64,000 nucleotides of DNA, from positions 708,583 to 772,582 of the forward strand of contig OZ252291.1 in NCBI GenBank assembly GCA_965250155.1, in the 5' to 3' direction. Both the position numbers and the translations under genes were made by a program. The stretch comes from Gemmatimonadales bacterium (lineage in GTDB: Bacteria; Gemmatimonadota; Gemmatimonadetes; Gemmatimonadales; GWC2-71-9). Below the pieces are notes generated by a model. That model made no database searches. It saw nothing but the letters and a program-made list of their open reading frames with translations, and was not told the DNA's origin. This document shows, in pieces, positions 107-53,828 of this stretch. Position 1 is the first letter of the stretch, and every line of letters starts with the position of its first letter.

Positions 107-181
107 CATTCAAGGTCGCCTAGAGAACCCGGCTTCGGATGATCAAAACGTTGAAGAGCTGTATCGCTCTATTGCGACCGC

Positions 182-16689: not shown

Positions 16690-16792
16690 GTAGCTTGCGG
16701 ACCCTCCAAGCCAACAACGCGGCGTAGGCCAACACCACCACCGCCACTACGACATACGCCGCCATCAGGTAGCCACTATTTTCAGGAGTCAC
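16685..16792 (-). CDS. ccmD: heme exporter protein CcmD (small ORF absent from the ORF track)
   Basis: Hand translation gives (GTG)TPENSGYLMAAYVVVAVVVLAYAALLAWRVRKLR*, a single TM helix followed by a basic tail. The start overlaps the ccmC stop. Confidence 0.55.
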   Translation of the reverse strand: MTPENSGYLMAAYVVVAVVVLAYAALLAWRVRKLR

Positions 16793-38643: not shown

Positions 38644-38832
38644 CTAGCGCCTCAGAAACCGCTTCAGATTCCGCAGGTAGTAGCTCAACCCAAGCGCCGC
38701 AATGCCGAACGAGATTCCCAGAACGAGCAGCGCCACGCTGCCGTTGCCCCAGAACGCCAACAGCATCCAAACGCCGAGTCCGGCGCAGAAGAAAATGGCC
38801 GTTGCGATGAGGAAGCGGTGAAAGCCGATCAT
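38644..38832 (-). CDS. small two-TM membrane protein
   Basis: 62 aa with two hydrophobic helices. ATGA overlap with the ctaB stop. Confidence 0.5.
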   Translation of the reverse strand: MIGFHRFLIATAIFFCAGLGVWMLLAFWGNGSVALLVLGISFGIAALGLSYYLRNLKRFLRR

Positions 38833-39701
38833 ATGCGCGATCCCATGAGGATCAGGAGCAAGGGCAAGTAGGCTAGGGAGTATGTGAAGACACGGCGTGC
38901 TTTCGCCATGGTACAGTGCCTCACGGCGGAGAAACTGGCGTACAGAAAGGCACCGGACAGCGCCATCGCCCCCACGAAGTACGCCGTACCGGCCATGCCC
39001 ACGATCGTCGGGGTGAGGCTCACCGGCACGAGCGCGGCAGCGTAGAGTGTGGAGTACCCGAAGGTCATGCGGCCGTCCGGATCCCCCACGCTCAAGATCT
39101 TGAATCCGGCGCGGGCATAGTCGTCACGATACATCCAAGCGAGGGCCAGGAAGTGGGGCAGCTGCCACAGAAAGAGGATCCAGAACAGCACCCAGACCTC
39201 ACCGCTCAACGTTCCCCGCACCGCCGTCCACCCACCAACGATCGGCAAGGCCCCCGGCACTGCCCCCACGAGTGTCGCTATCGACGTGCGCTTTTTCAGG
39301 GGCGTATACACGAAGGCGTACGACATCAGAGTGGCCGCTGCGATACCGGCGGTGAGGATGTTGGCGAAAGCACCCAGATACGCCACACCAGCTACCCCCG
39401 TCACCCAGGCAAAGGCACTCGCCGCCGCCACACTGAGGCGTCCCGCCGGGACCGGCCGGCCTCGGGTCCGGTGCATGAGGGCATCGGCCTCCCGCTCGCT
39501 AACCTGGTTGAGGGCGTTTGTGCCCGATGCGACCAGCACCGTTCCCACCAGCACGTGGAACAACACCATAGCCTGGTGCGCCTCCGGCCCCGCGAGCCAG
39601 AATCCCGCCGCGGCCGTGAGCATCACCATTACCACGATCCTGGGCTTTGCCAACTCGGCAAAGTCATGAAGCTGGAATCTGTCTAAAGAAAGCTTTACCA
39701 A
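38829..39701 (-). CDS. ctaB: protoheme IX farnesyltransferase (heme O synthase)
   Basis: UbiA-family motifs NALNQVSEREADALMHRTRGRP and YRDDYARAG in a multi-TM protein. Confidence 0.9.
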   Translation of the reverse strand: MVKLSLDRFQLHDFAELAKPRIVVMVMLTAAAGFWLAGPEAHQAMVLFHVLVGTVLVASGTNALNQVSEREADALMHRTRGRPVPAGRLSVAAASAFAWVTGVAGVAYLGAFANILTAGIAAATLMSYAFVYTPLKKRTSIATLVGAVPGALPIVGGWTAVRGTLSGEVWVLFWILFLWQLPHFLALAWMYRDDYARAGFKILSVGDPDGRMTFGYSTLYAAALVPVSLTPTIVGMAGTAYFVGAMALSGAFLYASFSAVRHCTMAKARRVFTYSLAYLPLLLILMGSRI

Positions 39702-39973
39702 ACGTACTCCGTGAGCACGGCCACTATTATGACGATAGTTAACGGCAAAGGCGCAATGGCGAATATCCGCATCCTGTTGCCCTCAAACTTCAAATGCATG
39801 AAGTACAGCGCTACCAGGAGCGCCTTCCAGATGGCAAGCACGAGCAGGACGAGCAGCTGAATCTCCTTCGACCAGGGGAGGAAAGCCACTCCCAGCTCGA
39901 CGACGGTGAGCACCAACAGATAGGCCCAAATCGTCCAATACTTCGGTTGTGTGTGCGCCACTCCGTCGGACAT
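39695..39973 (-). CDS. cytochrome c oxidase subunit IV family protein
   Basis: 92 aa from MSDGVAHTQPKYW, with three TM helices and the pattern YFMHLKFE. Confidence 0.7.
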   Translation of the reverse strand: MSDGVAHTQPKYWTIWAYLLVLTVVELGVAFLPWSKEIQLLVLLVLAIWKALLVALYFMHLKFEGNRMRIFAIAPLPLTIVIIVAVLTEYVW

Positions 39974-39990
39974 AGATCCTCCCAGCCTGC

Positions 39991-40650
39991 TCAAACGAGA
40001 TAGACGATGGTGAACAAGATTATCCAGACCAGATCCACGAAGTGCCAATACAGGCCGACCACCTCAACTCCGCGATGATCTTCCTTCGTATACGCGCCTC
40101 TGTAGGCCTTCCAAGTCACAAAGCTCATGCAGATGACGCCCATGGTGACGTGAAAGCCATGGAATCCCGTCATGGTGTAGAACGACGAGCCGTAGACCCC
40201 CACAGACACCGGCAACAAGCCTTCGGCCGCTCGCTCCGCCAGCTCGCTCCCGGGACCGTACCCCGAAGGCAAGAATCCCGCGTGAACGAGATGGGTGTAC
40301 TCGTAGACCTGCACGCCGACGAAGGCCGCACCGATCGCAACGGTGGCCAGCAGGTACAGTTTGAGGAGGCGCTGGTCGCCGTCTTGAATCGCGGCGAACG
40401 CCTTCACCATCGTCACGCTGCTACAGATCAGGAGGAACGTGTTGACCGCAGTGAGCGGAACGTTGAGGATCTGTCCCGGAGCGCCCCACTGCTCGGGGCT
40501 GCCGAAGCGCAGAATGATGTACGATCCGATCAGGGCCGTGAAGAACAGCACTTCCGACCCCAGGAAGACCCACATGCCCAGCTTCTCGCTGTAGACATCC
40601 GCGCCGATCTCGCGTCGGGCCGGTGGACTCATCAAGGCAGGGTGAGCCAT
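39991..40650 (-). CDS. ctaE: cytochrome c oxidase subunit III
   Basis: Motifs FLGSEVLFF, TGFHGFHVTMG and YWHFVDLVWI. Confidence 0.9.
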   Translation of the reverse strand: MAHPALMSPPARREIGADVYSEKLGMWVFLGSEVLFFTALIGSYIILRFGSPEQWGAPGQILNVPLTAVNTFLLICSSVTMVKAFAAIQDGDQRLLKLYLLATVAIGAAFVGVQVYEYTHLVHAGFLPSGYGPGSELAERAAEGLLPVSVGVYGSSFYTMTGFHGFHVTMGVICMSFVTWKAYRGAYTKEDHRGVEVVGLYWHFVDLVWIILFTIVYLV

Positions 40651-40664
40651 ATTTCTCGTCCCTC

Positions 40665-42425
40665 CTATGCGCCGGCCGCAGCCGAATCGACGTCAGATAC
40701 CAGCTTGCGGGTTTGCGGGAGGAAGTCCTCCTCCACCAGCGGCGAGCTGTACTCGTAGGGACCGCGATACACCGTCGGTACCTTGGCAAAGTTGCCATGG
40801 GGCGGCGGAGAGGGAACCGTCCATTCCAGCCCGTTGGCATCCCACGGGTTCTCGGCAGCCTTCTCGCCCTTGAACCAGCTCATGATGAAATTCACCACGA
40901 ACAGTATTTGCACAATCAACAGCAACAACGCACTCACCGTAATGAACCTGTTGAGCGGGGCGAGCGACTGTAGGAATTCGTATTGCGAGGGGTCGTAAAT
41001 GCGTCGCATGTGTCCGCTGATGCCTAGATTGTGCATCGGGAAGAACGTCAGGTTGTAGAAAAGGAAAGTCAGCCAGAAATGGATCTTGCCCAGGGTGGCG
41101 TTCATCATCCGGCCGAACATCTTCGGGTACCAATATGTCACCGCCGCAAAGATGGCGAAGAGGCTTCCGCCGAACAGTACGTAGTGGATATGAGCCACGA
41201 TGAAGTAGGTATCGTGGATGTAGATGTCCACAGGCGTGGCAGCCATGAAGATTCCGCTCAGGCCGCCAATCACGAACATCGCCACAAACCCGACCGCGTG
41301 GAGCATCGGTACGTGGAAGCGAATGTTCCCCCGCCACATCGTTCCCATCCAATTGAACACCTTGATAGCCGACGGCACCGCGATGATCATGGTGGATATC
41401 ATGAACGTCATGCCCAACGTGGGATTCATGCCGCTCTGGAACATGTGGTGGCCCCACACGACCCATCCCAGAAAGGCGATGGAGATGAGCGCGAACACCA
41501 TCGAGTAGTAACCGAACACCGGCTTGCGCGATCCGTTCGCAATGATGTCCGAGACCATGCCCATCGCCGGCAGGATGAGGATGTAGACCTCAGGGTGCCC
41601 GAAGTACCAGAACAGGTGTTGCCAGAGGATCACTTGGCCGCCGTCCGTCCAATCAAAGAAGTGCGTCCCGATAGTCTGGTCGAAGAAGAGCATGATCGCC
41701 GCCCCCGAGAGGATGGGGATGGCAAGCAGCACAAGGATCGCCGTGACGAAGAGTGACCAGATCGACAGTGGCATCCTGAACCAGGTCATCCCGGGAGCCC
41801 GCAGGTTTACCACCGTCGTGATGTAGTTCACGGCACCCAAGATCGACGCTAGACCGAGGATCGCCAGGCTCAGCAGCCAGATTTGTTGTCCCCCCCTTAC
41901 GCCGGTCCATTCGGGATCCGCGCTGAGCGGCGCGTACGCCGTCCAGCCCGCAGCCGCGTGGCCGCCTTCGACGAAGAAGCCTGCCATCATCAAGATCCCG
42001 GCAGAGAAGGCAATCCAGAACGACGCCATATTGAGTCGCGGAAATGCCATGTCCGGCGCGCCGATCTTGAGTGGGATCAAGAAATTCCCGAACACGCCGA
42101 CCAGCAGCGGCATGATGGCGAAGAACACCATGATCGTGCCGTGCATAGTGACCAGCGAGTTATAGAATTCGGGAAGCAGGATCCCGTCGGGCGCCATGGT
42201 CTCGGGAAGCAGCTGCCCCGCCGGGAGCGGCCGGTCCGGAAATCCGAGTTGCCATCGGATCATCATCGCCATCAACCCGCCGAACAGCAGGAACACAAAG
42301 CTCATCAGCAGGAATTGAATGCCGATGATCTTGTGGTCGGTCGAGAAGATGTACTTTCGCAGGAAAGATAGCTCGTGGGCTTCCACGTGCGCTGCGGGTT
42401 CCAAAGAAACCGCGGAAGTCGCCAT
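40665..42425 (-). CDS. ctaD: cytochrome c oxidase subunit I
   Basis: Motifs WYFGHPEVYILILP, GHHMF, FVIGGLSG and VAHIHYVLFGG. Confidence 0.95.
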   Translation of the reverse strand: MATSAVSLEPAAHVEAHELSFLRKYIFSTDHKIIGIQFLLMSFVFLLFGGLMAMMIRWQLGFPDRPLPAGQLLPETMAPDGILLPEFYNSLVTMHGTIMVFFAIMPLLVGVFGNFLIPLKIGAPDMAFPRLNMASFWIAFSAGILMMAGFFVEGGHAAAGWTAYAPLSADPEWTGVRGGQQIWLLSLAILGLASILGAVNYITTVVNLRAPGMTWFRMPLSIWSLFVTAILVLLAIPILSGAAIMLFFDQTIGTHFFDWTDGGQVILWQHLFWYFGHPEVYILILPAMGMVSDIIANGSRKPVFGYYSMVFALISIAFLGWVVWGHHMFQSGMNPTLGMTFMISTMIIAVPSAIKVFNWMGTMWRGNIRFHVPMLHAVGFVAMFVIGGLSGIFMAATPVDIYIHDTYFIVAHIHYVLFGGSLFAIFAAVTYWYPKMFGRMMNATLGKIHFWLTFLFYNLTFFPMHNLGISGHMRRIYDPSQYEFLQSLAPLNRFITVSALLLLIVQILFVVNFIMSWFKGEKAAENPWDANGLEWTVPSPPPHGNFAKVPTVYRGPYEYSSPLVEEDFLPQTRKLVSDVDSAAAGA

Positions 42426-42459: not shown

Positions 42460-43134
42460 CTACTCCTCGTCGGCCGCCACGGTCCTGTCCGACAGCCACT
42501 GTTGGTAATCTTCCGCCAAGTGGACGATCACCCTGGCCCGCATGAGATAGTGACCCAGACCGCACAGCTCGGCACAAGCAATCTCGTACTCCCCTACTTC
42601 CGTCGCTTCGAACCACACCTTGATGTCCATACCCGGCACCGCGTCCTGCTTGACGCGGAACGCAGGGACGAAGAATGAGTGTATCACGTCTTCGGCAATC
42701 AGCTGCAGCTCCACAGGCCGGTTCACCGGAATGTGAAGCTGGTTTCTCAGCGTGAAATCGTCGCCGGTCCCGAGCTGCCCATCGGGACCCCGATAAGTGA
42801 AGTTCCACTCGAACTGCTTGGCATGGACTTCGTACGGGATGGCGTTCGGCGGAATGCTGTTCCGGCCCCTGACGTGATTCCACACCCCGCCGCTCATGAG
42901 TCCGATGATTACCAGCGTCACAGCCGGAACCGCAGTCCAAACAATCTCGGCCCTTATGCTTCCTTCGATGTATTGGGCCTTGCGGCCCGGCCGGGCCCGA
43001 TACTTGATCGCGAACACAACCAGCCCGACTTCGACCACCACAAACGCTATACCGGTAATGACGAGAATGACGTAATACAAAAAATCGATATCACCGGCGA
43101 ACGTGGACGCACTGGATGGTAGAATCCAACTCAT
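42460..43134 (-). CDS. ctaC: cytochrome c oxidase subunit II (no fused cytochrome c domain)
   Basis: Two TM helices with CuA ligands VIHSFFVP and CAELCGLGHYLM. The protein ends about 30 aa after the CuA motif. Confidence 0.9.
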   Translation of the reverse strand: MSWILPSSASTFAGDIDFLYYVILVITGIAFVVVEVGLVVFAIKYRARPGRKAQYIEGSIRAEIVWTAVPAVTLVIIGLMSGGVWNHVRGRNSIPPNAIPYEVHAKQFEWNFTYRGPDGQLGTGDDFTLRNQLHIPVNRPVELQLIAEDVIHSFFVPAFRVKQDAVPGMDIKVWFEATEVGEYEIACAELCGLGHYLMRARVIVHLAEDYQQWLSDRTVAADEE

Positions 43135-43146: not shown

Positions 43147-43902
43147 TCAGCCGCCGAACGTGAAGTGCAGACTCGCCGAGCCGTCAGCTGCCATCGTGAC
43201 TTCGCCCGACTGCGTACCGAACGTTTCGTGCCAGGCCTCGACCTGGTAGGTCCCCGCCGGCAACCCGCCGATGGTGAACGAGCCGTCGGCAGCAGATGTT
43301 GCGAAGTAGGGATGCTCCACCACGCCCACGTACGCGTTCATCCACCCGTGCACGTTGCACTCCATGGGAATCATGATTTCGGGCGTGGCGAAACTGCGCC
43401 GCGATGTCATTCCCACGCGCGGCTGGCTGATATTGAAGCCACGGTTTTCGGTCGGGACCGCCTTGATGTTGTGAAGCAGCGGGTCGCTGTTGGTGATTTC
43501 CAGAGTCTGGCCCACCATCACCCCCACCACTCGAGGCGAGTAGAGGCATCCGTTTTGGTCTATGGTTGCGGCTTCACTGGGCTCCGGATACGGCCCGCCG
43601 GGCAGTCCGCCCACGATGCGGATGAACACATTTGCCAATTTGCCGTCCGTCACCACCACAATCGGGTCCGTGGGTCCGTCGCTGTGTTTGGCGGCGCAAT
43701 CCGGTTCCTCTGCCATGTCGATGGCCGGGTTCGTTGGCACGCTGCCGGCAAAACTGATTACACCTGTGATACTGCTGTTACCCAGCGGCGCCGCAGATGC
43801 CGCGGCACCACCGCTCCCACCCGAGCCCCCGTCGCCCCCACCACACGCGAGAAACGCGAACAAGCACGAGGTTACCCAAAAACGTCGCATCTTTCCTCCC
43901 AA
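43147..43902 (-). CDS. cupredoxin-like (type 1 copper) lipoprotein with C-terminal carboxypeptidase-regulatory-like beta domain
   Basis: Lipobox FLACGGG. Putative ligands are LLHNI ... ECNVHGWM (C-x2-H-x2-M, as in amicyanin). The C-terminus ADGSFTIGGLPAGTYQVEAWHE fits the regulatory-like beta domain. Confidence 0.6.
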   Translation of the reverse strand: MGGKMRRFWVTSCLFAFLACGGGDGGSGGSGGAAASAAPLGNSSITGVISFAGSVPTNPAIDMAEEPDCAAKHSDGPTDPIVVVTDGKLANVFIRIVGGLPGGPYPEPSEAATIDQNGCLYSPRVVGVMVGQTLEITNSDPLLHNIKAVPTENRGFNISQPRVGMTSRRSFATPEIMIPMECNVHGWMNAYVGVVEHPYFATSAADGSFTIGGLPAGTYQVEAWHETFGTQSGEVTMAADGSASLHFTFGG

Positions 43903-43914
43903 TAGAGAACGATT

Positions 43915-45510
43915 CTATGCCCCGCGTTCCCGTCGCTGGGCGCGCCAGACGATGCCGAATCCAAGTCCTGCACTCAGCACAACAGCAACGATTGGTGCCA
44001 CAAACACGCGAGGCGGTGTCGGCACATCCAAATAGATCGCATACCAGGCACTGATCGAGCCGCGCACACCGTCCTCACCGGCGGTGCCGTCTGCGGCAAA
44101 GAAACCGATCGGCAACGGCTCACCCGGCGTGAATGGGACGGCACCGCTCGGGTCAGCCGGGGCCAACACCCGCATGAACTGCACCTGCCACTGGCCATCC
44201 GCAAATGTAGCCGAATGTGCAACCTGAGGCGCCCCGGCGATGGGCGCGAACGAACCCATTCCGGTAGCCGTGCCCTCTCGAACCCGATCCGGCGAGCTGG
44301 TCCACTGCCACATGTACACCGGGTGCCGCGGGTCGCCGCCCATAAAGAAGGGTAACTCCAATCCCTCGGGCGGGTCGAGCGGGAACTGAATTCCAATCCG
44401 GTCGGGACCCTGCTCCCCGACGTGGGGCGCATCGACATCTGGGAGCGTCTCGACGATGCCCTGGAAGAATGCGTCCCATTCCGGATCGGGACTTCGGGAC
44501 GGATCGTTCCACGTGAGCTTCACGGTCAGGTTCTGGTCGTCGTGCGCGGCTCGCACCCAAATGCCGTCCACCGTGGGCGCGAACCACCGTGGCTTGATAG
44601 TAATCTGACCGACCATCGGGATGTAATACGGTTCGACGTTGTCCCACAGCGGATCCTCCGGACCGGACGGCAACGCCCCGTCAAACCGCGCCGCACGCAC
44701 CACGTCGCGAGGCTGGGGCGCCTCGTCGGGCGAAAGACTCAGCACGTACTGCGCAACCCGCCAAAGCTGCTCGTCGGTAATGATTCCAGCGTCTATGACA
44801 TCACTGTTGGAGGGCATCGGTGTTCCATCCAACCCCGTCCGCATCCGGAGGTAGATGTCGTCGACCGTACCGCCGCCGTTGAAATTCCAGTTTTCCGAGA
44901 GATCGGCTGCCCGAACCGGGAACCCCCAGTCGTCGGTCAACTCCGGGGCGGAGTTCCCATCGCCGCGGCCCTCATCGCCATGGCAGCGGAGGCATTCCAG
45001 CTCATCCACAAACACGCGCCGCCCTTCCTCGAGGTCTGCTTCGGAGGGCCGCCCGGGCTTGCGCCCTACACTGATCGGCTCGGGCGGGGCGCCGTCGAAG
45101 AATCTCGAAAACGTCTTGATATACGCGATCACGTCATCCCGCTCGCCGCCGCTCAGCTTGTCAGCCCACCCCGGCATAGCCGTGCCAGGCATTCCATTGT
45201 CGATGACGGCGCGCATATCGTCATCCGTAGGCAACTCGCCGCTCGCAGTCGTTCTCACCTGGTAGACGGCCGTCGTGAAGTCGCGCGGTCGCGGCAACAT
45301 GAACGCCGCTGCCTCGCCGTCTCCGGCACCCGTGTCTCCGTGACACCCGGCGCACCATTTCTCGTAGAGCTGCTCGCCACGGTCTAGGTCTTGGGCAAGG
45401 ACGGAGGGGGGAGCAGGGAGGAGGAACGCCCCGGCCAGGAGCAGGAAGGCCGCGCACGGCAAGACTCCTCCCACCTCCCACCTCCCACCTCCCTTGACCG
45501 GCCGGATCAC
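43915..45510 (-). CDS. diheme cytochrome c fused to an ethylbenzene-dehydrogenase-gamma/DOMON-like (EB_dh) domain
   Basis: CAGCHG and CLRCHG, followed by IWVRAAHDDQNLTVKLTWND...DRIGIQFP. The GTG start at 45510 has AAGGAGAG upstream and overlaps the upstream stop (GTGA). Signal peptide ...SVLA/QDL. Confidence 0.7.
   Translation of the reverse strand: MIRPVKGGGRWEVGGVLPCAAFLLLAGAFLLPAPPSVLAQDLDRGEQLYEKWCAGCHGDTGAGDGEAAAFMLPRPRDFTTAVYQVRTTASGELPTDDDMRAVIDNGMPGTAMPGWADKLSGGERDDVIAYIKTFSRFFDGAPPEPISVGRKPGRPSEADLEEGRRVFVDELECLRCHGDEGRGDGNSAPELTDDWGFPVRAADLSENWNFNGGGTVDDIYLRMRTGLDGTPMPSNSDVIDAGIITDEQLWRVAQYVLSLSPDEAPQPRDVVRAARFDGALPSGPEDPLWDNVEPYYIPMVGQITIKPRWFAPTVDGIWVRAAHDDQNLTVKLTWNDPSRSPDPEWDAFFQGIVETLPDVDAPHVGEQGPDRIGIQFPLDPPEGLELPFFMGGDPRHPVYMWQWTSSPDRVREGTATGMGSFAPIAGAPQVAHSATFADGQWQVQFMRVLAPADPSGAVPFTPGEPLPIGFFAADGTAGEDGVRGSISAWYAIYLDVPTPPRVFVAPIVAVVLSAGLGFGIVWRAQRRERGA
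45467..45494. repeat. tandem heptamer CCTCCCA x3 plus one imperfect copy (TGGGAGG on the coding strand)
   Basis: Copies at 45467-73, 45474-80 and 45481-87, then CCTCCCT at 45488-94. It lies in codons 6-15 (KGGGRWEVGG) of the cytochrome gene. Confidence 0.9.
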
Positions 45511-46286
45511 TGCTCTCCTTCCACTTCCCACGTCCTCGGCTCCAACCCCGCCTGCTCGTAGATGAAGATGATCACGGACCAGATCTCGTCCTCGGTAAGG
45601 AAATCCTCCCACACCGGCATCGCCGAATTCCACGGCGTCCCTTCAGGCGGCAACCCCGGACCGCCCTTTGCTATGCGCCAGAAGAGGAAGCTCTCTTGCA
45701 GTTGATCGATCGTGCCTGCCTCGAACGCCAGCGGTGTCGGGTTGAAACCGTGGCCGAAGTGCCCTTGCCCGTCCAACAGATCGCCGTGACAAGGCAGGCA
45801 ATTCTGATAGTAGACCCGCCTTCCCTCCAAGTAATGCTCTTCCATGGAGCCGCGCGACCGCAGCGGGTTCTCCAGGCCGGCTAACTTGATAGTCTTATCG
45901 CCGAACCTGATGGTCGCAGGCGGCGCCGGGTGAATCGACCGCAGCTGAGCCGTCGAGCCCACTTTCGGCCGTGCCATGTTGAATGTCGCCAGCCCGATCA
46001 GCACTGAAATCGCCGCAAGCAATGCGCCTCGCAGCGCGCGCTTGTCCGCATCCACCAGCGTCGCCTGTATCGGCTCCTTGAACCTCTTCCAGCGCTCCTC
46101 GTTCTCGCTCACAAAGATGAGTATTCCCAGCAACGCAATGAGCATGTACTCCAACACCACGCTGTTCGGTACGGCGGCGCTCCCGGGAAACAACGGAATC
46201 CCATAATTGAAAAACAGAAATGCGCCAAGCGAAAGCGCGACCGCCTGACCGAACGGATGCTTCATCCAACCCAGGATTCTCTTCAC
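45507..46286 (-). CDS. membrane-anchored monoheme cytochrome c
   Basis: Three N-terminal hydrophobic helices, CLPCHG, and AMPVWEDFLTEDEIWSVIIFIY (class I cytochrome c C-terminal pattern). The GTG start overlaps the upstream TAG by 1 nt. Confidence 0.75.
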   Translation of the reverse strand: MKRILGWMKHPFGQAVALSLGAFLFFNYGIPLFPGSAAVPNSVVLEYMLIALLGILIFVSENEERWKRFKEPIQATLVDADKRALRGALLAAISVLIGLATFNMARPKVGSTAQLRSIHPAPPATIRFGDKTIKLAGLENPLRSRGSMEEHYLEGRRVYYQNCLPCHGDLLDGQGHFGHGFNPTPLAFEAGTIDQLQESFLFWRIAKGGPGLPPEGTPWNSAMPVWEDFLTEDEIWSVIIFIYEQAGLEPRTWEVEGEQ

Positions 46287-47080
46287 TATCGCCGTCCTGC
46301 CAGGAACTGAACCATGGCTTCTAGCTGCTGGGCCGACAGTTTCTGCCCGAAGTCAACCGGCATCATGCCTGCAAATTGTTCAAAGCCGTCGGAAATTTCT
46401 GCATTTGGATCGAGAATAGCGCTCCTTATCTGATCCGCCGTGAGCCGGGCGCCAATCCCGTCGAACGACGGCCCGATCGGAATCGAGATTCCGTTGATGC
46501 CGTGGCAACCGATGCACACATTCTGTGTGAGCAGCTGCATTGGATCTGTGGTCGAGCTGAAAGTGGCCGGCACCGCCGCAGCCGCGGCCGGCTCCGCGGA
46601 TTCGCCTCCGCCTGGCTGGATGTCGGCGGCCGTTACCGTAACCTCACCCCCTTGATCCTGGAGATAGGCGATGATGGCCCAGATCTGGTCAGCCGAGAGT
46701 TGTCGCCGAGCATCCGGCATGATAGCGGTGAATCCGTCTACCAGGTACTCGGCCGGCTGAGTGAGCGATTCGTAGAGATATGCTTTGCAATCCATCCCCG
46801 GCTTAGAATCGCCACACCGCTGCCCAATCGTCCCCTGGCCGGCGTGATCCGTGCGGAGATTCGGCGCCCGGGTACCCAACCCATGGCACACCGTGCAGCC
46901 ACCCGCACCGCTGAAGAGCGCCTCACCGGCAGGTACCAGCACCTCAGGAGTGACCCCTGCACTCAGATCCAGCACCTCCGGCACGGCAGATTGCAGTTGC
47001 GGAATGATCTGTGCCACCATCGTGTAAAACCCCAGCACGATGGCGGCGAGCAACAGCACCCTGAGATTCGTCTTCCACAT
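46286..47080 (-). CDS. diheme cytochrome c, N-terminal anchor/signal
   Basis: CTVCHG and CIGCHG, with DQIWAIIAYLQ and QLEAMVQFL helices. The start was taken at MWKTNLRVLLL, 4 nt after the upstream stop. Confidence 0.8.
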   Translation of the reverse strand: MWKTNLRVLLLAAIVLGFYTMVAQIIPQLQSAVPEVLDLSAGVTPEVLVPAGEALFSGAGGCTVCHGLGTRAPNLRTDHAGQGTIGQRCGDSKPGMDCKAYLYESLTQPAEYLVDGFTAIMPDARRQLSADQIWAIIAYLQDQGGEVTVTAADIQPGGGESAEPAAAAAVPATFSSTTDPMQLLTQNVCIGCHGINGISIPIGPSFDGIGARLTADQIRSAILDPNAEISDGFEQFAGMMPVDFGQKLSAQQLEAMVQFLAGRR

Positions 47081-47084: not shown

Positions 47085-48839
47085 CTACTCCACGAGAGTC
47101 GCGGGTTGTGTCTGCCGCGCAAGCGGCGCCGCCTTGGACTCCGATGCGATCCCCTCGGCCAGGCCGCCCAGCCAAAAGATGAACGTGACCAAGCTCAAGA
47201 AGATTACGACACACACGGTTATCATGTTCGCGGCGTACCCCAACGCCGGCGTGACGGCATAGTCGCTGGTGTCGCGCATGACCTCCCACACGTGCCAGTG
47301 CTGCCGAATGCCGCTGCGTGCGAAGCCCATCAACCCCATGAGCCAGGTGAAAGTGATCGCTAGAACGAAGATCGCGTATTGCGACCGCTCGGGCATCTCA
47401 CCCCAGCGAATCTCGCCTTTCGACCCCGCTCCTCGGAGGATGAACACGTCGATCACCGTCACCCCGATGATACACGCGAGCACCGCAACCACCTGTAACG
47501 GGCTGAGTACGGCGACCCGTGTGATGGTCTCGACCCCGAACGACACACCGAAGAGATCGAATTTGTATCCAATGATTCCCAAGAACAGCACGACGCCCCC
47601 GGACAGCACGAACATCGCCCCCTGGATAAGGGTCCCCGTCTTGGCCCAGGGGACCGTAGGAATCCTGTTCGCCCGCCGATACAGCAAGAAGGAAAGGAAA
47701 GTGGTCAGAATCATGAAATTAACGGCGGTGTTCTTCGCGCTCATCAGGCCGAGCACACCGAGGAAGGGATGGCGGCTGCCCCCCATTGCCGCGAATTCGT
47801 CACGCGTAGCGATCAGGGTGTTCGGAGTGCCCCATACTATCCAACAGATGATCAGGACCACCAGCATCCACTTCGTGTAGGGCATGAATCGTTCGGCTCC
47901 GGGTATTCGCCCCATCCCCGTCCACAGGTAGTAATTGGCCGACAGGAACAGTACGCCGATGAGAATGGCTTGGACGATCCACAACCAGCTCATGAAGCCA
48001 CCCATCATCGTAATGCCCAGCTGTTGGTTGTACTCGTAAATCTCCCGTCCCAGGTAATAGCCCGCGAAGGGCAGCACGATAAACATCGAGATGGCGATGA
48101 ACGTCCCCACGTATCCCATCCAATCGTAGTGGGCACGCTCTTCATCGGTCTTGGCCGCCAAGAAACGATACGCCGCGTACGCCGCGACGATCGAGCCACC
48201 GAACACGGCGTTGGCAATCATGCGGTGTATGTTGATCGGCATCCAAGTGGCGTTGGCGATGGCGTTCCACAACCCGACGCCCTCGGGCAGGCCTTGCACG
48301 GTGGTGCCCTCGGGCGGCGACATCATGTAGGTAAGCCATCCATTGGCAATGAACATGACGGCGGTGCCCCACACGTTCAGCAGCAGGCCGAGCCCCCAGT
48401 GCCCCCATTTGGCGCGACCTTCCTTCCACTTGTCCCAGCCGTAGTAATAGAGGTATAGCGTGAACGATTCGATGAAGAACAGGCCGGCATAGATCCACAT
48501 TGACAGATGGAAGATCTCCGCCATGTGGCCCCAGAACGCCGGGTAGAGCGTTGACAGAAGAAACAGCAGCAACCCGCCCCACAGAGCGGTGGCGCTGTAG
48601 GCGAAAACCAACAGCCGCGTGAACTCTTTCGAGAGCTTGTCGTATTTCGAGTCCTTGCCGACGATTCCGATGAACTCGGTGATCACGGCAAACATGGGCA
48701 CGCCGAGTACAAACGCGGCGAACATCAGGTGGATTTCCGCCGCAATCCAAACCGCGCCCCGCGCACCAATGCCCGGGAAGTCGCCGTACTGGCGGGCGCC
48801 ATCCGCGGCTCCCTGGATCAGGCTCAGCGCGTCAATCAT
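47085..48839 (-). CDS. cytochrome bd-like membrane protein (CydA family, no Q-loop, no CydB partner)
   Basis: The N-terminal ~190 aa are collinear with E. coli CydA (EIHLMF, FFIESF, YYYGWDKW, FIANGWLTYMM, NIHRMI). About 13-14 hydrophobic spans. Degenerate GIRQHW stands in place of GRQPW. Confidence 0.75.
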   Translation of the reverse strand: MIDALSLIQGAADGARQYGDFPGIGARGAVWIAAEIHLMFAAFVLGVPMFAVITEFIGIVGKDSKYDKLSKEFTRLLVFAYSATALWGGLLLFLLSTLYPAFWGHMAEIFHLSMWIYAGLFFIESFTLYLYYYGWDKWKEGRAKWGHWGLGLLLNVWGTAVMFIANGWLTYMMSPPEGTTVQGLPEGVGLWNAIANATWMPINIHRMIANAVFGGSIVAAYAAYRFLAAKTDEERAHYDWMGYVGTFIAISMFIVLPFAGYYLGREIYEYNQQLGITMMGGFMSWLWIVQAILIGVLFLSANYYLWTGMGRIPGAERFMPYTKWMLVVLIICWIVWGTPNTLIATRDEFAAMGGSRHPFLGVLGLMSAKNTAVNFMILTTFLSFLLYRRANRIPTVPWAKTGTLIQGAMFVLSGGVVLFLGIIGYKFDLFGVSFGVETITRVAVLSPLQVVAVLACIIGVTVIDVFILRGAGSKGEIRWGEMPERSQYAIFVLAITFTWLMGLMGFARSGIRQHWHVWEVMRDTSDYAVTPALGYAANMITVCVVIFLSLVTFIFWLGGLAEGIASESKAAPLARQTQPATLVE

Positions 48840-50154
48840 CGCGCGAGAAGAAAGGCAGACGTTTCGAGAAATCCACCGGCATATTGCGGCGCACCTCCCG
48901 CATCAGTTCGGCGGTAACCTCGGTGTGCCCCTCGCGCCGCGCGTAATCCTCCAGCCGTTTCACGACCACGCCGCGTACAAACGAGGGGATGCGTTGAATC
49001 CGCGCCTCAGCCTCATCCGACCACTGCAATTTGGCGGTGACCACCGCCCCATAGGTCACGGCGCGCGAGGTGACGAGCGGACGAGTCTCGTCCGGCTCAT
49101 AGGCACAGGAAGAATCTTCCGCCATGTAGTCGCCGCTCGAGCTGTAAGCCCGGGCACGACACCCACCACAAATCGCTCGGTATTCACAGCGACCGCACTT
49201 TCCGCCTAGCGCTCCCCGGCGCAGATCGTGAAACAGCTCCGAGTTGTTCCACACCTCGGCGAACGACGACTCACGGAGATCGCCGGCCGGGAGCGGCATA
49301 TAAGGACACGCCGTGAGCTTGCCGTCTGGTGTTATGCGCCCGTACTGCACGCCGCACGGGCAGCGGGTGGCATAATTGAGAATCGGAGACTCCGGAGCGC
49401 GCTGGTGCACCAGCCGCATGAAATGCGGTGCACACTTGGCTCGCACCATCATTCGCCCCATGTACTCGATATGAAGGTCCACGAGCTCGCCCAACGAATC
49501 CTCGTATTCCTCCGGCGACAACTCCGCCATCTTAGCGCCGCGCCCCGTGGAAACCACGAAATACGCGTTGAACGACACGGCGCCCTTCTCGGCGGACCAC
49601 GCAACCAGTCCAGGCAGCTCGCGACGGTTCCCCTTGGTGAGCGTGGTTTGTATGACGAAATCGAGACCGTGCACTACCAACCTGTCCACTGCAGCCAGCG
49701 TCGCATCGAGCGAACCGTGGCCGTGCCGGAAGCGGTCGTGATACTTCACGTCGAGCGACTCGACACTCACGGCAACACCGGTCACGCCGGCGTCCTGTAA
49801 CGCGGCGATTTTCTCGGAGGTGAGCAAAGTGCCATTGGTGCCTACGACCACTGTAGCTCCACCCTTCGCCGCATGCGAAGCTATCTCCGAGAGATCCTCA
49901 CGCAGCAGGGGCTCGCCGCCCGACAGGATAAACATGGGATTGGGATTGAGGGCGAGAATCTCGTCTGCGATGCGCAGGCACTCGTCGGTAGACAGCTCAT
50001 CGTCGGCGGATTCGGAGGGGCCCGCCGAGATATAGCAGTGCGCACACTGGAGATTACACCGGCGCGTGAGATTCCACGCGACAACATGGGGCAAGTAGTT
50101 GCCCGCTTGGCGATCACCGGCCGGCGCCTCTCCCAACGCCGCGAGTGACGTCAC
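48832..50154 (-). CDS. radical SAM/SPASM enzyme of the NirJ/AhbC/AhbD type with C-terminal PCP_red-like domain
   Basis: VVAWNLTRRCNLQCAHCY, ILSGGEPLLREDL and the SPASM Cys cluster GKCGRCEYRAICGGCRARAY. The C-terminus reads WSDEAEARIQRIPSFVRGVVVKRLEDYARREGHTEVT. Confidence 0.8.
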   Translation of the reverse strand: MTSLAALGEAPAGDRQAGNYLPHVVAWNLTRRCNLQCAHCYISAGPSESADDELSTDECLRIADEILALNPNPMFILSGGEPLLREDLSEIASHAAKGGATVVVGTNGTLLTSEKIAALQDAGVTGVAVSVESLDVKYHDRFRHGHGSLDATLAAVDRLVVHGLDFVIQTTLTKGNRRELPGLVAWSAEKGAVSFNAYFVVSTGRGAKMAELSPEEYEDSLGELVDLHIEYMGRMMVRAKCAPHFMRLVHQRAPESPILNYATRCPCGVQYGRITPDGKLTACPYMPLPAGDLRESSFAEVWNNSELFHDLRRGALGGKCGRCEYRAICGGCRARAYSSSGDYMAEDSSCAYEPDETRPLVTSRAVTYGAVVTAKLQWSDEAEARIQRIPSFVRGVVVKRLEDYARREGHTEVTAELMREVRRNMPVDFSKRLPFFSRDD

Positions 50155-52139
50155 TCGTCTCCTGTTTTCAGCAACTTTTCGACCGCTGCCTTGGCGTCAG
50201 CCACCGACACTGTTTTAAAGTCAACGGGACAGGCCGACGCTTTTTCCTCTATATCCCTTATGGGACACCTGGTGACCCCGGACGCCTTCGCCTCTTCGAT
50301 AAATTGCCGCATCTCCCGCGACAGTCCATCTCCACCCTCGGCTTCCGCACGAATCTGCTTGGCGCGCAGCTCCCGGAACATCCCCATCATTGTCTCCGCA
50401 TCGAACTCGTCCGCCTCGATCATCGCCTGTTTGTTCTCGTCCATGACCGAAGTGGTGACGCGCCACATCTCATGACCACTGGCGAATTTCTCCACCGCAT
50501 TGCGGGCCAGCGGACGGGCGATCAAGGGAACCGTTCTGAGGCGCTCGAAAGCTTCGACGGTCCAGACAGTGGAGTCTGCCACTTTACGTTCGCGCGTCGT
50601 CATGTGACCGGTCATGGGGCACTTTACGTCGACCACGGCCCCCGCGATTTCGCTGTCTGCCTCATTCCCCAGCACCAGCGTTTTGGCCATCTGCTCCTCG
50701 GCCTTGATTTCGGCACGAGCCAGCTCCTCTGCGTCACCGACGCCCATCAGCAACTGCATGTGAGTCGGCAACAACTTCCGGATGGCCTCGTCCAACCATT
50801 TGTTCGTCACCAGGTCGGCGCCGTGCTCAATGGTGTACTCCTCAACCGCGCGGCGCGCTATCCCCTGTGCGAACGGAGGCACGCGCTGAATTCGCACCTC
50901 GGCGTCCGGGGCCCACGGAATTCCCTCTTTGCCGTCCTCTTCGAGCCAGGGAATGTCCTCGGGCCTTACACCGACCGTCCCGGTAACCAGCAGATTGCAC
51001 GGGGCGAGTCGCAGCAGGTTCTCTACCTGAGAGCCCATCTCCGTTCCATCGATCCGGTGTGCGCCGTGTCGCCCCACGATCAACAGGCTTGGTTGAATCT
51101 CCTCGACCCACTGCAGAATGACTTGGAACGGTTTGCCTATGAGAATCTGCGTTTCGAACCGAACATCGGGAAACTCTTTTGCGATCGCCTCAGCACGCTT
51201 GATGTTCGCTTGGCTGAGCTTCAGGAGTCCCTTGTCGATGATGTTGTTGTGAAGCTCCTCCTGCTCTTCGAACTTGAAGACCTTGGACGCCTTCTCGGAG
51301 AGTACATCCTTGATGTTGTTGAAGACGGCGTGATGATATTCGACGTCGAACGCACTGCAAACGTATACCATCGCATCAAAGTCGCGGGCAAGTTCCAGAG
51401 CGACTCTCATCGTCCTGTAGCTGTACGCGGACCCGTCGACGCAAACCATGAACTTGCCGCGACGCAGTGGCTTGTCGTTGCGGATGATGAGCATGTCCTT
51501 TTCAATGCGCCTTGCCGCCCTGGCAACTACACCGCCAATCTGCGAGTACGGCTGGCGGCCGATGCCGTGTGCGCCCATCAATACCAGATCGTATTGCCGC
51601 CCCGACGCGCCGGCGAGTTTGTCAGCCTGATCTTCGTCCTCACCAACTATGCGTCCGTCGGCACCCAGCCGGACGTCAGAACGAACCCGCTCGCCCCCGT
51701 CGTAATTGGCCGCGATGTTCGGATCGAACCCGATCAGGCTGGGTAGTTGACCCGCTCCACGATTAACCTCGTTAACAATTTCCTCGTAGTTGATTCCCTC
51801 GAGGAGTTGTCGCCGCAACGGAACATCCGCAGCCGCGCAGCGCCGCTCCACCTGGTCGAGGAACGAGTCGGAGATGAGTTGCAGGCCCTTCTCGATCAGC
51901 TTGTCGTGGACTTTGCGCTGGCGCTTGATCTCGGCGGGCGTCTGAAATTGTGCTGGAAGGCCTGTCTCGAGCTGGCGGAATCGAACGTCGTGAAGCCGCG
52001 CCGCGTAGACATGGTTGCCGGTGATGCGCCCTTGGGATTTCGAGCACACCTCGATTGCGCGGGCCACGGCCCAATCGGAGCATTGGGAGTTATCAACTGG
52101 AACGAGAACTTCACTGTACATACCCCCGCCCTTCGGCAA
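50151..52139 (-). CDS. tandem universal-stress-protein domains fused to two PCP_red-like domains
   Basis: Usp patterns VLVPVDNS...DLVLMGAHG and FMVCVDGS...SLLIVGRHG. The PCP_red-like copies are at aa 407-455 and 525-570. The C-terminal tail carries CPIRD...ACP. Confidence 0.7.
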   Translation of the reverse strand: MPKGGGMYSEVLVPVDNSQCSDWAVARAIEVCSKSQGRITGNHVYAARLHDVRFRQLETGLPAQFQTPAEIKRQRKVHDKLIEKGLQLISDSFLDQVERRCAAADVPLRRQLLEGINYEEIVNEVNRGAGQLPSLIGFDPNIAANYDGGERVRSDVRLGADGRIVGEDEDQADKLAGASGRQYDLVLMGAHGIGRQPYSQIGGVVARAARRIEKDMLIIRNDKPLRRGKFMVCVDGSAYSYRTMRVALELARDFDAMVYVCSAFDVEYHHAVFNNIKDVLSEKASKVFKFEEQEELHNNIIDKGLLKLSQANIKRAEAIAKEFPDVRFETQILIGKPFQVILQWVEEIQPSLLIVGRHGAHRIDGTEMGSQVENLLRLAPCNLLVTGTVGVRPEDIPWLEEDGKEGIPWAPDAEVRIQRVPPFAQGIARRAVEEYTIEHGADLVTNKWLDEAIRKLLPTHMQLLMGVGDAEELARAEIKAEEQMAKTLVLGNEADSEIAGAVVDVKCPMTGHMTTRERKVADSTVWTVEAFERLRTVPLIARPLARNAVEKFASGHEMWRVTTSVMDENKQAMIEADEFDAETMMGMFRELRAKQIRAEAEGGDGLSREMRQFIEEAKASGVTRCPIRDIEEKASACPVDFKTVSVADAKAAVEKLLKTGDE

Positions 52140-52261
52140 TGTTGGTGGGTTCCACCAAAAACCAGACTTGGAGGCCGCCTCACGGCACTAGATTGACCTG
52201 ACCTGCTCCGCCCGATTTTGCGCGCGATTATATAGCCCTCGGACCATCTGTCAAGACCGTT

Positions 52262-52507
52262 TCACGGCACGAGTTGCTTTCCGTCGCCATCGAAAACCGT
52301 GAGAGCGTCAACCGGACAAATCTCACACGCTCGAAGGAGTCTCTCGCGCTCTACCGACTCGGGATGCTCGCCGAACACGGCGATGTCATCAGCATCCAGC
52401 TGGAACCCCTCCGGCGCCTCGGACACGCAATCTCCGAAGCCAACGCAGAGACCTCGGTCGATTTGGATTCTCAGCCCTGCGATCGTGCGCTCGTCAATCT
52501 CGGACAC
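52262..52507 (-). CDS. single-cluster ferredoxin
   Basis: 81 aa with CVGFGDC ... CEICP (a CxxFxxC...CP pattern, suggesting 3Fe-4S or a 4Fe-4S cluster with a non-Cys ligand). Confidence 0.8.
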   Translation of the reverse strand: MSEIDERTIAGLRIQIDRGLCVGFGDCVSEAPEGFQLDADDIAVFGEHPESVERERLLRACEICPVDALTVFDGDGKQLVP

Positions 52508-52948
52508 CTACATCGCCTCCAGACCCAGATCGGCACGGGCTTCATCCATGACGGCGGGAGTAATCTCGGCAATCCCGTGTTCGGCCGCCCACTCCACATA
52601 AATCTTCTTGACCATCCCCCGAACGAACTTGGGCACCCTGGTCAGCCGTTCCTCGCTTTCGGCGCTCCAACGCACGCCGCCGGGTCCGCCGGGTGCGGCA
52701 TCCTCGAACGCGTCTTCCCGACCGATCATGGAGCGGCGCGTGAGTTCCATGGGCTGCTCGTCCAGCGTCCGCCCTCCAATCTGCACACCGAGGGCCCCCA
52801 CCAACTGCGTTTCCATGGGATTCGCCAACATCGCTACCTTGTACCCGCACTTCGGACAGCTAAACGATGCGCCAAATGTTCCGTCGCCGGGTTCTTGCCT
52901 CTCCTCGAACGTCATCTGCTCGTCGCAACCGACGCATAGGAACTTCAT
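52508..52948 (-). CDS. zinc-ribbon + PCP_red-like domain protein
   Basis: CVGC...CPKC at the N-terminus. The C-terminus reads VRWSAESEERLTRVPKFVRGMVKKIYVEWAAEHGIAEIT. It abuts the ferredoxin start. Confidence 0.6.
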   Translation of the reverse strand: MKFLCVGCDEQMTFEERQEPGDGTFGASFSCPKCGYKVAMLANPMETQLVGALGVQIGGRTLDEQPMELTRRSMIGREDAFEDAAPGGPGGVRWSAESEERLTRVPKFVRGMVKKIYVEWAAEHGIAEITPAVMDEARADLGLEAM

Positions 52949-52985
52949 GCCAACGCTCCCAAAAACGGTGATCGAAGGGACAACA

Positions 52986-53828
52986 TTACCGGACGCACCC
53001 CCAAAAGGCGTCTACCAGGCCGGGCGTATCACAGCTCGCCGGCCCGGCGCCCGGCGTGAACGGAACGCGCGCCAGCAGGGGCACGCCAAACTCCTCAGAC
53101 AGGTCGTTGCCCGCCGTTCCATCGAACAACGCACGCAGCGCACCACACTCATCACATCGATAACTGCTCATGTTTTCCACGATCCCGAGGAGGGGTATGC
53201 CGGCTTCCGACGCCGAGCACATGGTTCGAGCGACCGATCTACGAGACTCCTCGCTGGGGATCGTGACGACGAGGGCACCGGTCAGGTTGGGAACCATCTG
53301 CTTGAGATCCACACCGCCGTCCGCACCGGGAGGCAGGTCGACCAGCAGCAGGTCAAGGGCTCCCCACACCACGTCGCTCAGGAACTCTCTCAGCGTACCG
53401 GTCTCCAGCACACCCCGCCACACAAAGCGCTCGGTGGTCGGCTCACGCCAACGCAGCGGTTGGCTTTCCTCCAGGAGCAAGTCCGTCGACACCACACGAA
53501 CGCCGACCGTACCTATGGCTGGTTCGATGCCGTCTTCGGTGACGCGCAAGGGGCCGCTCACCGCCAGAAGTCTCGCCACGGTGGGGCTGCGCAGGTCGGC
53601 GTCCAGAACACCCACTCCCTGTTCGAGACGTGAGGCCAGGCCGGCTGCCAGAGTCGCCGTCAGATGGCTCTTGCCGACGCCGCCCTTGCCGCTCATCACG
53701 GCCACAACCTGTCGCACGGATGCCAGTCGACGACCCACTCTCTCACGCTGGGCTACCACCTGCGCGTACAACTGCGACCGATCTTCGCCCCCGACGTCGT
53801 GATAGGTGCGGAAACTCATAGATCCCAT
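52986..53828 (-). CDS. Mrp/NBP35 (ApbC)-family Fe-S cluster carrier ATPase
   Basis: Deviant Walker A SGKGGVGKS, LLLVDLPPG and ENMSSYRCDECG (CxxC). Confidence 0.85.
   Translation of the reverse strand: MGSMSFRTYHDVGGEDRSQLYAQVVAQRERVGRRLASVRQVVAVMSGKGGVGKSHLTATLAAGLASRLEQGVGVLDADLRSPTVARLLAVSGPLRVTEDGIEPAIGTVGVRVVSTDLLLEESQPLRWREPTTERFVWRGVLETGTLREFLSDVVWGALDLLLVDLPPGADGGVDLKQMVPNLTGALVVTIPSEESRRSVARTMCSASEAGIPLLGIVENMSSYRCDECGALRALFDGTAGNDLSEEFGVPLLARVPFTPGAGPASCDTPGLVDAFWGCVR

Follow-up and report, generated by a model that had tools for sequence, protein, structure and literature searches.

A cytochrome bd-like OR-N2 module with five haem c sites, packed against a cupredoxin and an aa3 oxidase in Gemmatimonadota

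A 64,000-nucleotide (nt) stretch of the genome of a Gemmatimonadales bacterium (contig OZ252291.1, positions 708,583 to 772,582; G+C content of ~61%), hereafter the window, carries on its minus strand a gene for a cytochrome bd-like protein, genes for an aa3-type oxidase and, between them, 4 genes whose products display 5 c-type haem motifs and a putative type 1 copper site. What do these redox sites serve, and in which direction do electrons pass through them? An initial annotation, made from the sequence letters, considered the cytochromes as carriers wedged between the 2 enzymes and offered 2 answers: either the bd-like protein and these carriers act as a quinol:cytochrome c/cupredoxin oxidoreductase feeding the aa3 oxidase, or the cytochromes donate electrons to the bd-like protein, which would then be a separate terminal reductase. 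We find that the module corresponds to the published OR-N2 or 'bd-like oxidase' cluster, that is, an uncharacterised complex of a known kind, and that the 5 haem sites are standard equipment of this module rather than free carriers between two enzymes, whereas the cupredoxin follows the cox genes.

Both its sequence and its predicted fold place the bd-like protein in the cytochrome bd superfamily. It is matched by Pfam PF01654 (Cyt_bd_oxida_I; E 6.9e-17), and its profile aligns to residues 10-207 of Geobacillus CydA (5doq_A; E 1.9e-17), with the sequence similarity ending after helix 5-6. The AlphaFold (AF2) model, with a predicted local distance difference test (pLDDT) score of 89.3, contains 13 transmembrane helices, and its best Foldseek matches are exclusively CydA/AppC chains, with template modelling (TM) scores of 0.4-0.58; the copy of the PDB searched held no structure closer than CydA/AppC and no OR-N enzyme. 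For comparison with relatives, we used 80 loci, the closest of at least 587 relatives in the GTDB species representatives (L numbers denote the retrieved loci), and a protein library clustered at 50% identity, in which 222 clusters match with E <= 1e-30 (P numbers denote representatives of the bd-like protein). Residues Y117, E124, Y131, Y133, H147 and H205 occupy the positions of E. coli E99, E107, F114, F116, H126 and H186, respectively, reproducing the Y/E/Y/Y/H/H pattern given for OR-N2 at these positions (Murali et al. 2021, Table S6). H37 is equivalent to the haem ligand His19 and is kept in 77 of 78 related loci, with a gap in the remaining one; apart from this gap, the signature residues, M279 and the periplasmic H357 and H516 are invariant across the 78 loci. 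The candidate haem and proton-path residues are H37, Y117, E124, H147, H205 and M279.

Compared to canonical CydAB (5doq, 6rko, 7oy2), the first 4 to 5 helices are homologous and His19, Glu107, His126 and His186 all have counterparts, but there is neither a Q-loop nor an adjacent cydB, extra helices have been added at the C-terminus, and c-type cytochrome subunits stand in place of the quinol site. The Q-loop is considered absent because the loop between transmembrane helices 6 and 7, which in the AF2 model end near residue 270 and start at residue 284, respectively, spans only ~13 residues. By contrast, the OR-N2 enzymes of Nitrospira, Nitrospina and anammox bacteria, as well as TO_1 of Candidatus (Ca.) Manganitrophus, share with the window the signature residues, the lack of a Q-loop and the downstream gene order, and in bd652 of the Nitrospira locus L081 the spacing is exactly that of the OR-N2 reference. 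OR-N2 operons 'typically' encode an EbdC homologue beside several cytochromes c, and cytochrome c is the likely donor (Murali et al. 2021); the window operon has the same composition. TO_1 comprises a bd-like oxidase, 2 cytochromes c and a periplasmic cytochrome b (Yu and Leadbetter), whereas the cluster kept in Nitrospina and anammox bacteria consists of a bd-like oxidase, 2 membrane c-cytochromes and alt_NxrC_2 (Mundinger et al. 2019). The window module nevertheless departs from the OR-N2 of the literature in several respects: it has a predicted 13 rather than 14 transmembrane helices and is missing the ~60-residue N-terminal extension of the Nitrospirota members; there are no nitrite oxidoreductase (NXR) genes nearby; the module stands in one run with cupredoxin-coxBACD-ctaB, with a radical-SAM/PCP_red block on its 5' side; the column mapped to the EB_dh Lys ligand holds Arg; and the host belongs to Gemmatimonadota, a phylum known mainly for heterotrophy and not for the oxidation of nitrite or Mn. 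In a second group of bd-like paralogues, from Nitrospirota (L082, L083 and L084), the Glu107 position is taken by Leu or Phe; these genes are stand-alone, with no cytochrome genes nearby, and an ArgZ-like gene comes next in L082 and L084. Nitrospirota paralogues of the P0182 type are also orphan genes, with no cytochromes in the vicinity, and no genuine NIDE0901 (bd-like_2) locus was found for comparison.

All 5 CXXCH motifs reported by the initial annotation were located in the genes to which it had assigned them, and each falls within a Pfam cytochrome c domain: CTVCH at amino acid 62 and CIGCH at amino acid 189 of the dihaem protein, CLPCH at amino acid 163 of the monohaem protein, and CAGCH at amino acid 53 and CLRCH at amino acid 173 of the dihaem-EB_dh protein. 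No further CXXCH motif occurs in the 18,393 amino acids of the 56 proteins predicted in the window, and shuffling the 3 cytochrome proteins produced a mean of 0.0014 by chance. The motifs and the distal Met are conserved across 63-71 syntenic homologues. The region 43915-47080 is thus predicted to encode 3 membrane-anchored c-type cytochromes with 2, 1 and 2 haems c, the last of which also carries an EbdC/NxrC-like domain and is the counterpart of the 'alt_NxrC' or 'periplasmic cytochrome b' of the Nitrospirota literature.

Gene fusions in relatives indicate how these proteins are likely to be arranged. In 3 representatives (P0136, P0138 and P0153), the bd-like protein runs on into a transmembrane helix and cytochrome c domains, and the tail of P0136 aligns to the whole of the window dihaem protein (BLASTP E 1e-42). 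The monohaem and dihaem-EB_dh proteins, in turn, are a single polypeptide in L074, L076 and L079, which are from Methylomirabilota or unclassified (in L074 at locus coordinates 12491-14674; match E 5e-81). Because the fusions join the bd-like protein to the dihaem cytochrome and the monohaem cytochrome to the dihaem-EB_dh protein, the 4 proteins appear to make up one four-subunit complex. The bd-like protein of Nitrospira L081, with 48.6% identity to that of the window, is followed by proteins with 2 CXXCH, 1 CXXCH and 2 CXXCH plus EB_dh, the same 2+1+2 order, with the second and third matching their window counterparts with E-values of 7.6e-55 and 2.5e-75, respectively. In the window, the junctions between the bd-like and cytochrome genes are overlapping or 4 nt apart. 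The sequence evidence thus identifies the 3 cytochromes as predicted integral subunits of an OR-N2-type complex built around the bd-like core, and the view that they are carriers placed between 2 enzymes has to be abandoned. What stands of the initial interpretation is that the bd-like protein, cytochromes, cupredoxin and oxidase belong together, as supported by the packing of the genes, their order in 2 phyla and the fusions; what it failed to recognise is the published OR-N2 module. The C-terminus of the bd-like protein is predicted to be cytoplasmic, because the model has 13 transmembrane helices and the His19 equivalent lies at the periplasmic end of helix 1. Since the extra helix of the fusions, or the anchor of the dihaem protein, follows this cytoplasmic C-terminus, the haems c would be periplasmic, beside the haem position formed by H205 and M279.

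The EB_dh/DOMON-like domain noted in the initial annotation was recovered with Pfam PF09459 (E 1e-11) and with TIGR03477, the model of the haem b subunit of type II DMSO reductases (E 5.7e-20), as in the EbdC/NxrC gamma subunits of that family. Unlike in EbdC/NxrC, however, the domain is fused behind 2 cytochrome c domains and followed by a C-terminal transmembrane anchor, no partner molybdoenzyme is encoded at the window operon, and Arg takes the place of the candidate Lys ligand. A phmmer search of the PDB with only the EB_dh domain found no match, so the mapping of haem b ligands relies on NCBIfam model coordinates, with Met108 and Lys201 taken as the axial ligands of EbdC. The column mapped to the Lys ligand holds R483 in the window protein, and in 66 relatives it is mostly Arg (51), with Gln in 6 and Lys in 5; the 5 Lys carriers are Methylomirabilota or unclassified loci, and Nitrospira L081 has Lys as well. 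The Met-ligand column holds Met in 39 and Gly in 18 of the relatives, and M390 of the window protein sits one position earlier. The window domain is an uncertain candidate for haem b binding.

The product of the next gene is predicted, from sequence and modelled structure, to be a type 1 (blue) copper lipoprotein that goes with the downstream aa3 oxidase. Its amicyanin-like H/C/H/M site, recognised in the initial annotation, has held up: the ligands H144, C182, H185 and M188 are present in 56 of 57 syntenic homologues from 2 phyla, with a gap in the remaining one, and 3 of the 4 ligands (H144, C182 and H185) are aligned in a weak match to the sequence of the blue-copper protein 5fc9. Pfam cupredoxin models do not detect the protein. 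The AlphaFold model (mean pLDDT 81.9) is matched in Foldseek by amicyanin (TM score ~0.70), plastocyanin (0.74) and the Nitrosopumilus cupredoxin 5fc9, with E-values ranging from 4e-6 to 1e-5 and target-normalised TM scores from 0.68 to 0.75. As M5 is conserved, translation probably starts at the ATG at 43890, and the N-terminus displays Cys20 followed by a Gly-rich linker, so the protein is a probable lipoprotein. It shares the cupredoxin fold with amicyanin and plastocyanin, and the His...Cys-x2-His-x2-Met spacing is that of amicyanin, but it differs from both in the lipoprotein-type N-terminus, an extra N-terminal beta segment with a conserved Cys69/Cys119 pair, and an added C-terminal CarboxypepD_reg domain.

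The oxidase itself is of the A-type aa3 kind, with CoxA, CoxB bearing a CuA site, CoxC, CoxD and both haem O and haem A synthases encoded in the window; CoxB, CoxD and CtaB all score above curated cut-offs. CoxB (224 amino acids; 168.6 bits versus a cut-off of 147.7) contains no CXXCH and ends ~20 residues past the CuA motif, in agreement with the earlier statement that it lacks a fused cytochrome c. Across the related loci, the cupredoxin tracks cox: it is found in nearly all cox-bearing loci, being undetected in L006 and L037, and is absent from L074 and L081, where there is no adjacent oxidase. Hence, the cupredoxin goes with cox and not with the bd-like module. In some Gemmatimonadota, a second cox cluster lies directly 5' of the same operon (L003, at 2-3700, L008 and L015); the CoxB of this cluster in L003 has a fused cytochrome c (caa3 type); for L008 and L015, the retrieved sequence starts at coxA.

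In the window, the bd-like, cytochrome, cupredoxin and cox genes are packed as if they formed one operon, and this arrangement is not peculiar to a single genome. The bd-like module is packed against cupredoxin-coxBACD-ctaB wherever the contig reaches, with 2 apparent exceptions among the 80 loci. In Gemmatimonadota (Gemmatimonadales, Longimicrobiales and Palauibacter), the order is Mrp - PCP_red - Usp/PCP_red - radical SAM - bd-like - dihaem cytochrome - monohaem cytochrome - dihaem-EB_dh in nearly all loci that are long enough, L037 being an apparent exception, and cupredoxin - coxBACD (- ctaB) comes next, save for the 2 loci in which the cupredoxin was undetected. The order in Rokubacteria/Methylomirabilota is bd-like - dihaem cytochrome - (monohaem cytochrome) - dihaem-EB_dh - cupredoxin - coxBA - ctaB - coxC; upstream of the Rokubacteria loci stand the housekeeping genes FtsH, HtrA, DnaJ and ClpB and no respiratory genes. 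We did not find the coupling of the module to cupredoxin-aa3 and to the radical-SAM/PCP_red block described before. No paper combining 'bd-like' with Gemmatimonadota was found in the literature searched, and the main text of Murali et al. 2021 makes no mention of Gemmatimonadota, cupredoxin, aa3 or radical SAM.

From where, then, would an oxidase of this kind obtain its electrons? As the initial annotation had remarked, the window offers no conventional complex III: no cytochrome b, Rieske or Act-type domain was detected by Pfam in 50 of its 56 proteins, with 6 open reading frames (ORFs) of ~100-190 amino acids lying outside the scan. Cytochrome bc1/b6f was therefore rejected for the window, since neither a cytochrome b nor a Rieske domain occurs among the scanned proteins. 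Alternative complex III (ACIII), which with its adjacent caa3/aa3 oxidase is likewise a membrane complex with several haems c encoded directly 5' of a haem-copper oxidase, was also rejected, as ActB (molybdopterin-like/FeS), ActC/F (NrfD-like) and the pentahaem ActA are missing from the operon and from the scanned proteins of the window. The bd-like model itself gives but a weak Foldseek match to an ACIII structure (6btm_C; E 0.013, TM score 0.25-0.31). A conserved ORF of ~361 amino acids with a Rieske-type CxH...CPWH motif, absent from the window, is located 3' of ctaB in L018, L020, L024, L025, L051, L052, L059 and L072 (at ~20.3-21.5 kb in locus coordinates); this form of the motif is characteristic of oxygenases and ferredoxins and not of bc1.

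A survey of 326 Gemmatimonadota genomes found petB in 23%, ACIII in <10% and caa3-type oxidases in 74%; its authors raise the possibility of novel complex III modules, while conceding that the KEGG-based ACIII counts are unreliable (PMC9426454). In its Data Set S4, cydA (K00425) is recorded in 173 of the 326 genomes versus 95 for cydB (K00426), which suggests that the orphan 'cydA' is often the bd-like gene and that the latter is probably counted in surveys as a canonical bd quinol oxidase. Such miscounting would distort the respiratory chains inferred for Gemmatimonadota. In the part of the survey tables that was examined, petB was found in 3 of 16 genomes with an orphan cydA, so the 2 are not mutually exclusive, although this is a weak test (PMC9426454).

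We tentatively favour, while holding it to be somewhat short of probable, the possibility that the operon encodes a branched terminal segment of the respiratory chain, in which a cytochrome c-fed bd-type O2 reductase stands beside a cupredoxin feeding the aa3 oxidase. The 5 haems c would form an electron wire on the periplasmic face of the membrane, leading to a b-type haem with H205 and M279 as its ligands, at the place taken by the Q-loop in canonical bd oxidases. From there, electrons would pass to the H37-ligated haem, at which O2 would be reduced with protons taken from the cytoplasm via the retained Y117/E124/H147 path, making the complex a cytochrome c-dependent, non-pumping bd-type oxidase. 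The cupredoxin would carry electrons from the same haem c level to the CuA site of the proton-pumping aa3 oxidase. We prefer this proposal because the quinol site has been lost, with H37, H205/M279 and E124/H147 strictly kept, and also because the analysed Nitrospira genomes are reported to be without haem-copper oxidases, with bd-like enzymes proposed as their terminal oxidases and, in some Nitrospira species, being the sole oxygen reductases reported. In Ca. Manganitrophus, the expression of TO_1 is in the 98th percentile. Several considerations weigh against it, however. The Glu99 equivalent is Tyr and the Glu445 equivalent is not conserved according to the table of Murali et al., so that an intact di-haem O2 site is not assured; 2 terminal oxidases in one tight operon, kept across 2 phyla, would be odd; the module is also reported from anammox bacteria, which are anaerobes, and from Nitrospina, a bacterium with a cytochrome c oxidase of its own; and the source of reduced cytochrome c is left unexplained, given how rarely petB and ACIII accompany the caa3-type oxidases in the survey. 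Neither a purified OR-N enzyme nor biochemical data on one were found in the literature searched.

The other answer of the initial annotation is that the bd-like complex oxidises menaquinol at an unrecognised site and passes electrons from its b haems through the 5 c haems and the cupredoxin to the CuA site of aa3, acting like complex III or ACIII yet unrelated to either. A complex III-like role for the bd-like module was raised already in 2013 (Lucker et al.), and the cluster type has been linked to the quinone pool (Mundinger et al. 2019). We regard this possibility as doubtful, albeit a serious one. The order bd-like, dihaem, monohaem, dihaem-EB_dh, cupredoxin, coxB is common to Gemmatimonadota and Methylomirabilota and resembles that of ACIII-oxidase operons, CoxB has no cytochrome c of its own, the survey counts leave room for a novel complex III, and the occurrence of the module in anaerobic anammox bacteria would fit. 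Yet the bd-like protein lacks the Q-loop and every known quinol-binding residue, and no quinol site could be identified, whereas the residues that have been retained are those for O2 chemistry and cytoplasmic proton delivery, which quinol oxidation would leave unexplained; moreover, oxidising quinol by way of a cytoplasmic proton path would dissipate the proton-motive force. The module is also found without an adjacent oxidase in L074 and L081, the authors of the survey have reservations about its ACIII counts, and orphan cydA can coexist with petB. Extended to the whole family, the idea would make the OR-N2 complex a third, unrelated quinol:cytochrome c (or cupredoxin) oxidoreductase, feeding aa3 in Gemmatimonadota and Methylomirabilota but running in the direction of the quinone pool in anammox bacteria and nitrite oxidisers; we consider this broader claim unlikely, but, if true, it would explain how most Gemmatimonadota genomes can have a cytochrome c oxidase without bc1 or ACIII. 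The sequence data do not separate the branched terminal segment from menaquinol oxidation, and both ideas are already in the literature.

Two further explanations seem improbable to us. The EB_dh domain could dock a periplasmic dehydrogenase, as NxrC and EbdC do, so that electrons would enter there and flow through the c haems and the cupredoxin to aa3, the bd-like protein serving mainly as an anchor. This would agree with the dihaem-EB_dh protein being the counterpart of 'alt_NxrC', a proposed anchor of nitrite oxidoreductase, and with the match of its dihaem part to Kuenenia 6h5l_B (E 8.8e-57, ~50% identity in the printed alignment), which we take to be the partner of an octahaem enzyme. However, neither the operon nor the syntenic loci encode a molybdoenzyme or another periplasmic dehydrogenase, the invariant haem and proton-path residues of the bd-like protein point to catalysis rather than anchoring, and the candidate EB_dh Lys ligand is Arg in Gemmatimonadota. 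Equally small is the chance that the bd-like complex reduces NO, peroxide or another oxidant, as a protective or alternative reductase co-expressed with aa3. The report of the module in anaerobes, the non-canonical active site (Glu99 replaced by Tyr, Glu445 not conserved) and the upstream radical-SAM haem-related block, which could mean a non-standard haem, are all compatible with such an activity, but those Nitrospira whose genomes encode no further cytochrome c oxidase must have an enzyme that reduces O2.

The branched terminal segment and its competitors bear on the respiration of Nitrospira, Nitrospina, anammox bacteria and Mn oxidisers. Until now, hypotheses on the module have come from slow-growing chemolithotrophs, where it adjoins NXR or bc complexes. 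Here, an orthologous module stands apart from NXR and is coupled to a copper carrier and an aa3 oxidase of the conventional kind in 2 phyla known mainly for heterotrophy, and this conserved cupredoxin-aa3 coupling makes the old question of what the bd-like complex does more testable by comparative genomics.

Upstream of the bd-like gene, the block at 48832-53828 (minus strand) is kept in most Gemmatimonadota loci and in the NC10 locus L074. The radical SAM protein scores 296.9 bits with the NCBIfam model AhbD and 293.3 bits with NirJ2, both under the 500-bit cut-offs. PCP_red is the tetrapyrrole-site domain of BchB/ChlB, and a small PCP_red protein is also encoded beside the bd-like paralogue in Nitrospira L081 (2825-3286). 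The block may be a dedicated system of haem modification or haem insertion, and one possibility is that bd-like enzymes have a modified haem of their own, which the AhbD/NirJ-like radical-SAM and PCP_red proteins would synthesise or insert. No paper on the block was found, nor was PCP_red encountered in the literature searched.

Table 1. Features of the respiratory gene run and of related assembly genes in the window.
Feature	Coordinates	Strand	Evidence and remarks
Mrp/NUBPL-type iron-transfer P-loop NTPase	52986..53828	-	First gene of the conserved upstream block; Pfam ParA/NUBPL E 4e-55; synteny
Small PCP_red protein	52508..52948	-	Pfam PF08369 E 7.3e-12; syntenic
Promoter-like site TTGACA-16-TATAAT	52227..52254	-	12/12 consensus positions; consensus match alone
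Usp domains and two PCP_red domains	50151..52139	-	Pfam Usp 1.7e-29, PCP_red 1.5e-19; syntenic
Radical SAM/SPASM protein, AhbD/NirJ2 (haem-modifying) group, C-terminal PCP_red	48832..50154	-	Pfam, NCBIfam; syntenic
Cytochrome bd-like subunit, OR-N2 signature	47085..48839	-	Pfam Cyt_bd_oxida_I, CydA profile, AF2/Foldseek, residues
Membrane-anchored dihaem cytochrome c, one N-terminal transmembrane helix	46286..47080	-	Pfam; CTVCH, CIGCH; fusion in relatives
Monohaem cytochrome c, three transmembrane helices	45507..46286	-	Pfam; CLPCH; Nitrospira 345-amino acid orthologue
Dihaem cytochrome c with EB_dh/DOMON (EbdC/NxrC-like) domain and C-terminal transmembrane anchor	43915..45510	-	Pfam, NCBIfam; CAGCH, CLRCH
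Predicted type 1 copper cupredoxin, probable lipoprotein, C-terminal CarboxypepD_reg beta-sandwich	43147..43902	-	Ligands, AlphaFold, Foldseek
CoxB, CuA site, no cytochrome c domain	42460..43134	-	Curated CoxB model, Pfam
CoxA, haem-copper oxidase subunit I	40665..42425	-	Pfam COX1 2.3e-152
CoxC, subunit III	39991..40650	-	Pfam COX3 8.2e-27
CoxD, subunit IV	39695..40048	-	TIGR02229 44.5 bits, cut-off 37.25
CtaB, haem O synthase	38829..39701	-	TIGR01473 268.7 bits, cut-off 210.3
CtaG and SCO1	28315-29774		Pfam scan
Other respiratory assembly regions	16782-18307, 18882-19978		With the CtaA and CtaG/SCO1 regions, hold CtaA, CcmB/CcmC, VKOR/DsbA-like, CtaG and SCO1
CtaA	10834-11820		Pfam scan

Within the minus-strand run from the Usp/PCP_red gene to ctaB, neighbouring genes overlap or are separated by gaps of <=34 nt, the radical SAM and bd-like genes overlapping by 8 nt. 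The promoter-like site lies in the 368-nt gap 5' of the Usp/PCP_red gene and is, from its sequence, the likely candidate for the start of the long operon. Terminator-like sites show no clear enrichment in the window (20 versus 13.4 +/- 3.9 expected), and the gaps between usp and ctaB, none longer than 34 nt, leave no room for one. The listed start of coxD overlaps coxC by 58 nt, and its true start is probably further downstream. The tightly packed run ends with ctaB, after which there is a gap of 282 nt. Genes for respiratory assembly are plentiful elsewhere in the window and include those for CtaA, CcmB/CcmC, VKOR and DsbA-like proteins, CtaG and SCO1; CtaA, CtaG, SCO1 and CcmBC fit an aa3 oxidase and the maturation of c-type cytochromes.

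Beyond the gap that follows ctaB, a 519-amino acid protein (36987-38546, minus strand) with a lipoprotein-like N-terminus has no Pfam match and is matched in just one of the 80 loci, the closest relative L001. At the other end, an HmuY-like haem-binding protein is encoded divergently (54278-54901, plus strand), with ~33 nt between its gene and the one that opens the upstream block, and it is syntenic across many loci. Further along, 2 adjacent ORFs on the minus strand (56962-57507 and 57515-57994) each contain part of a Ser/Thr protein kinase domain and may represent a disrupted gene or a sequencing error.

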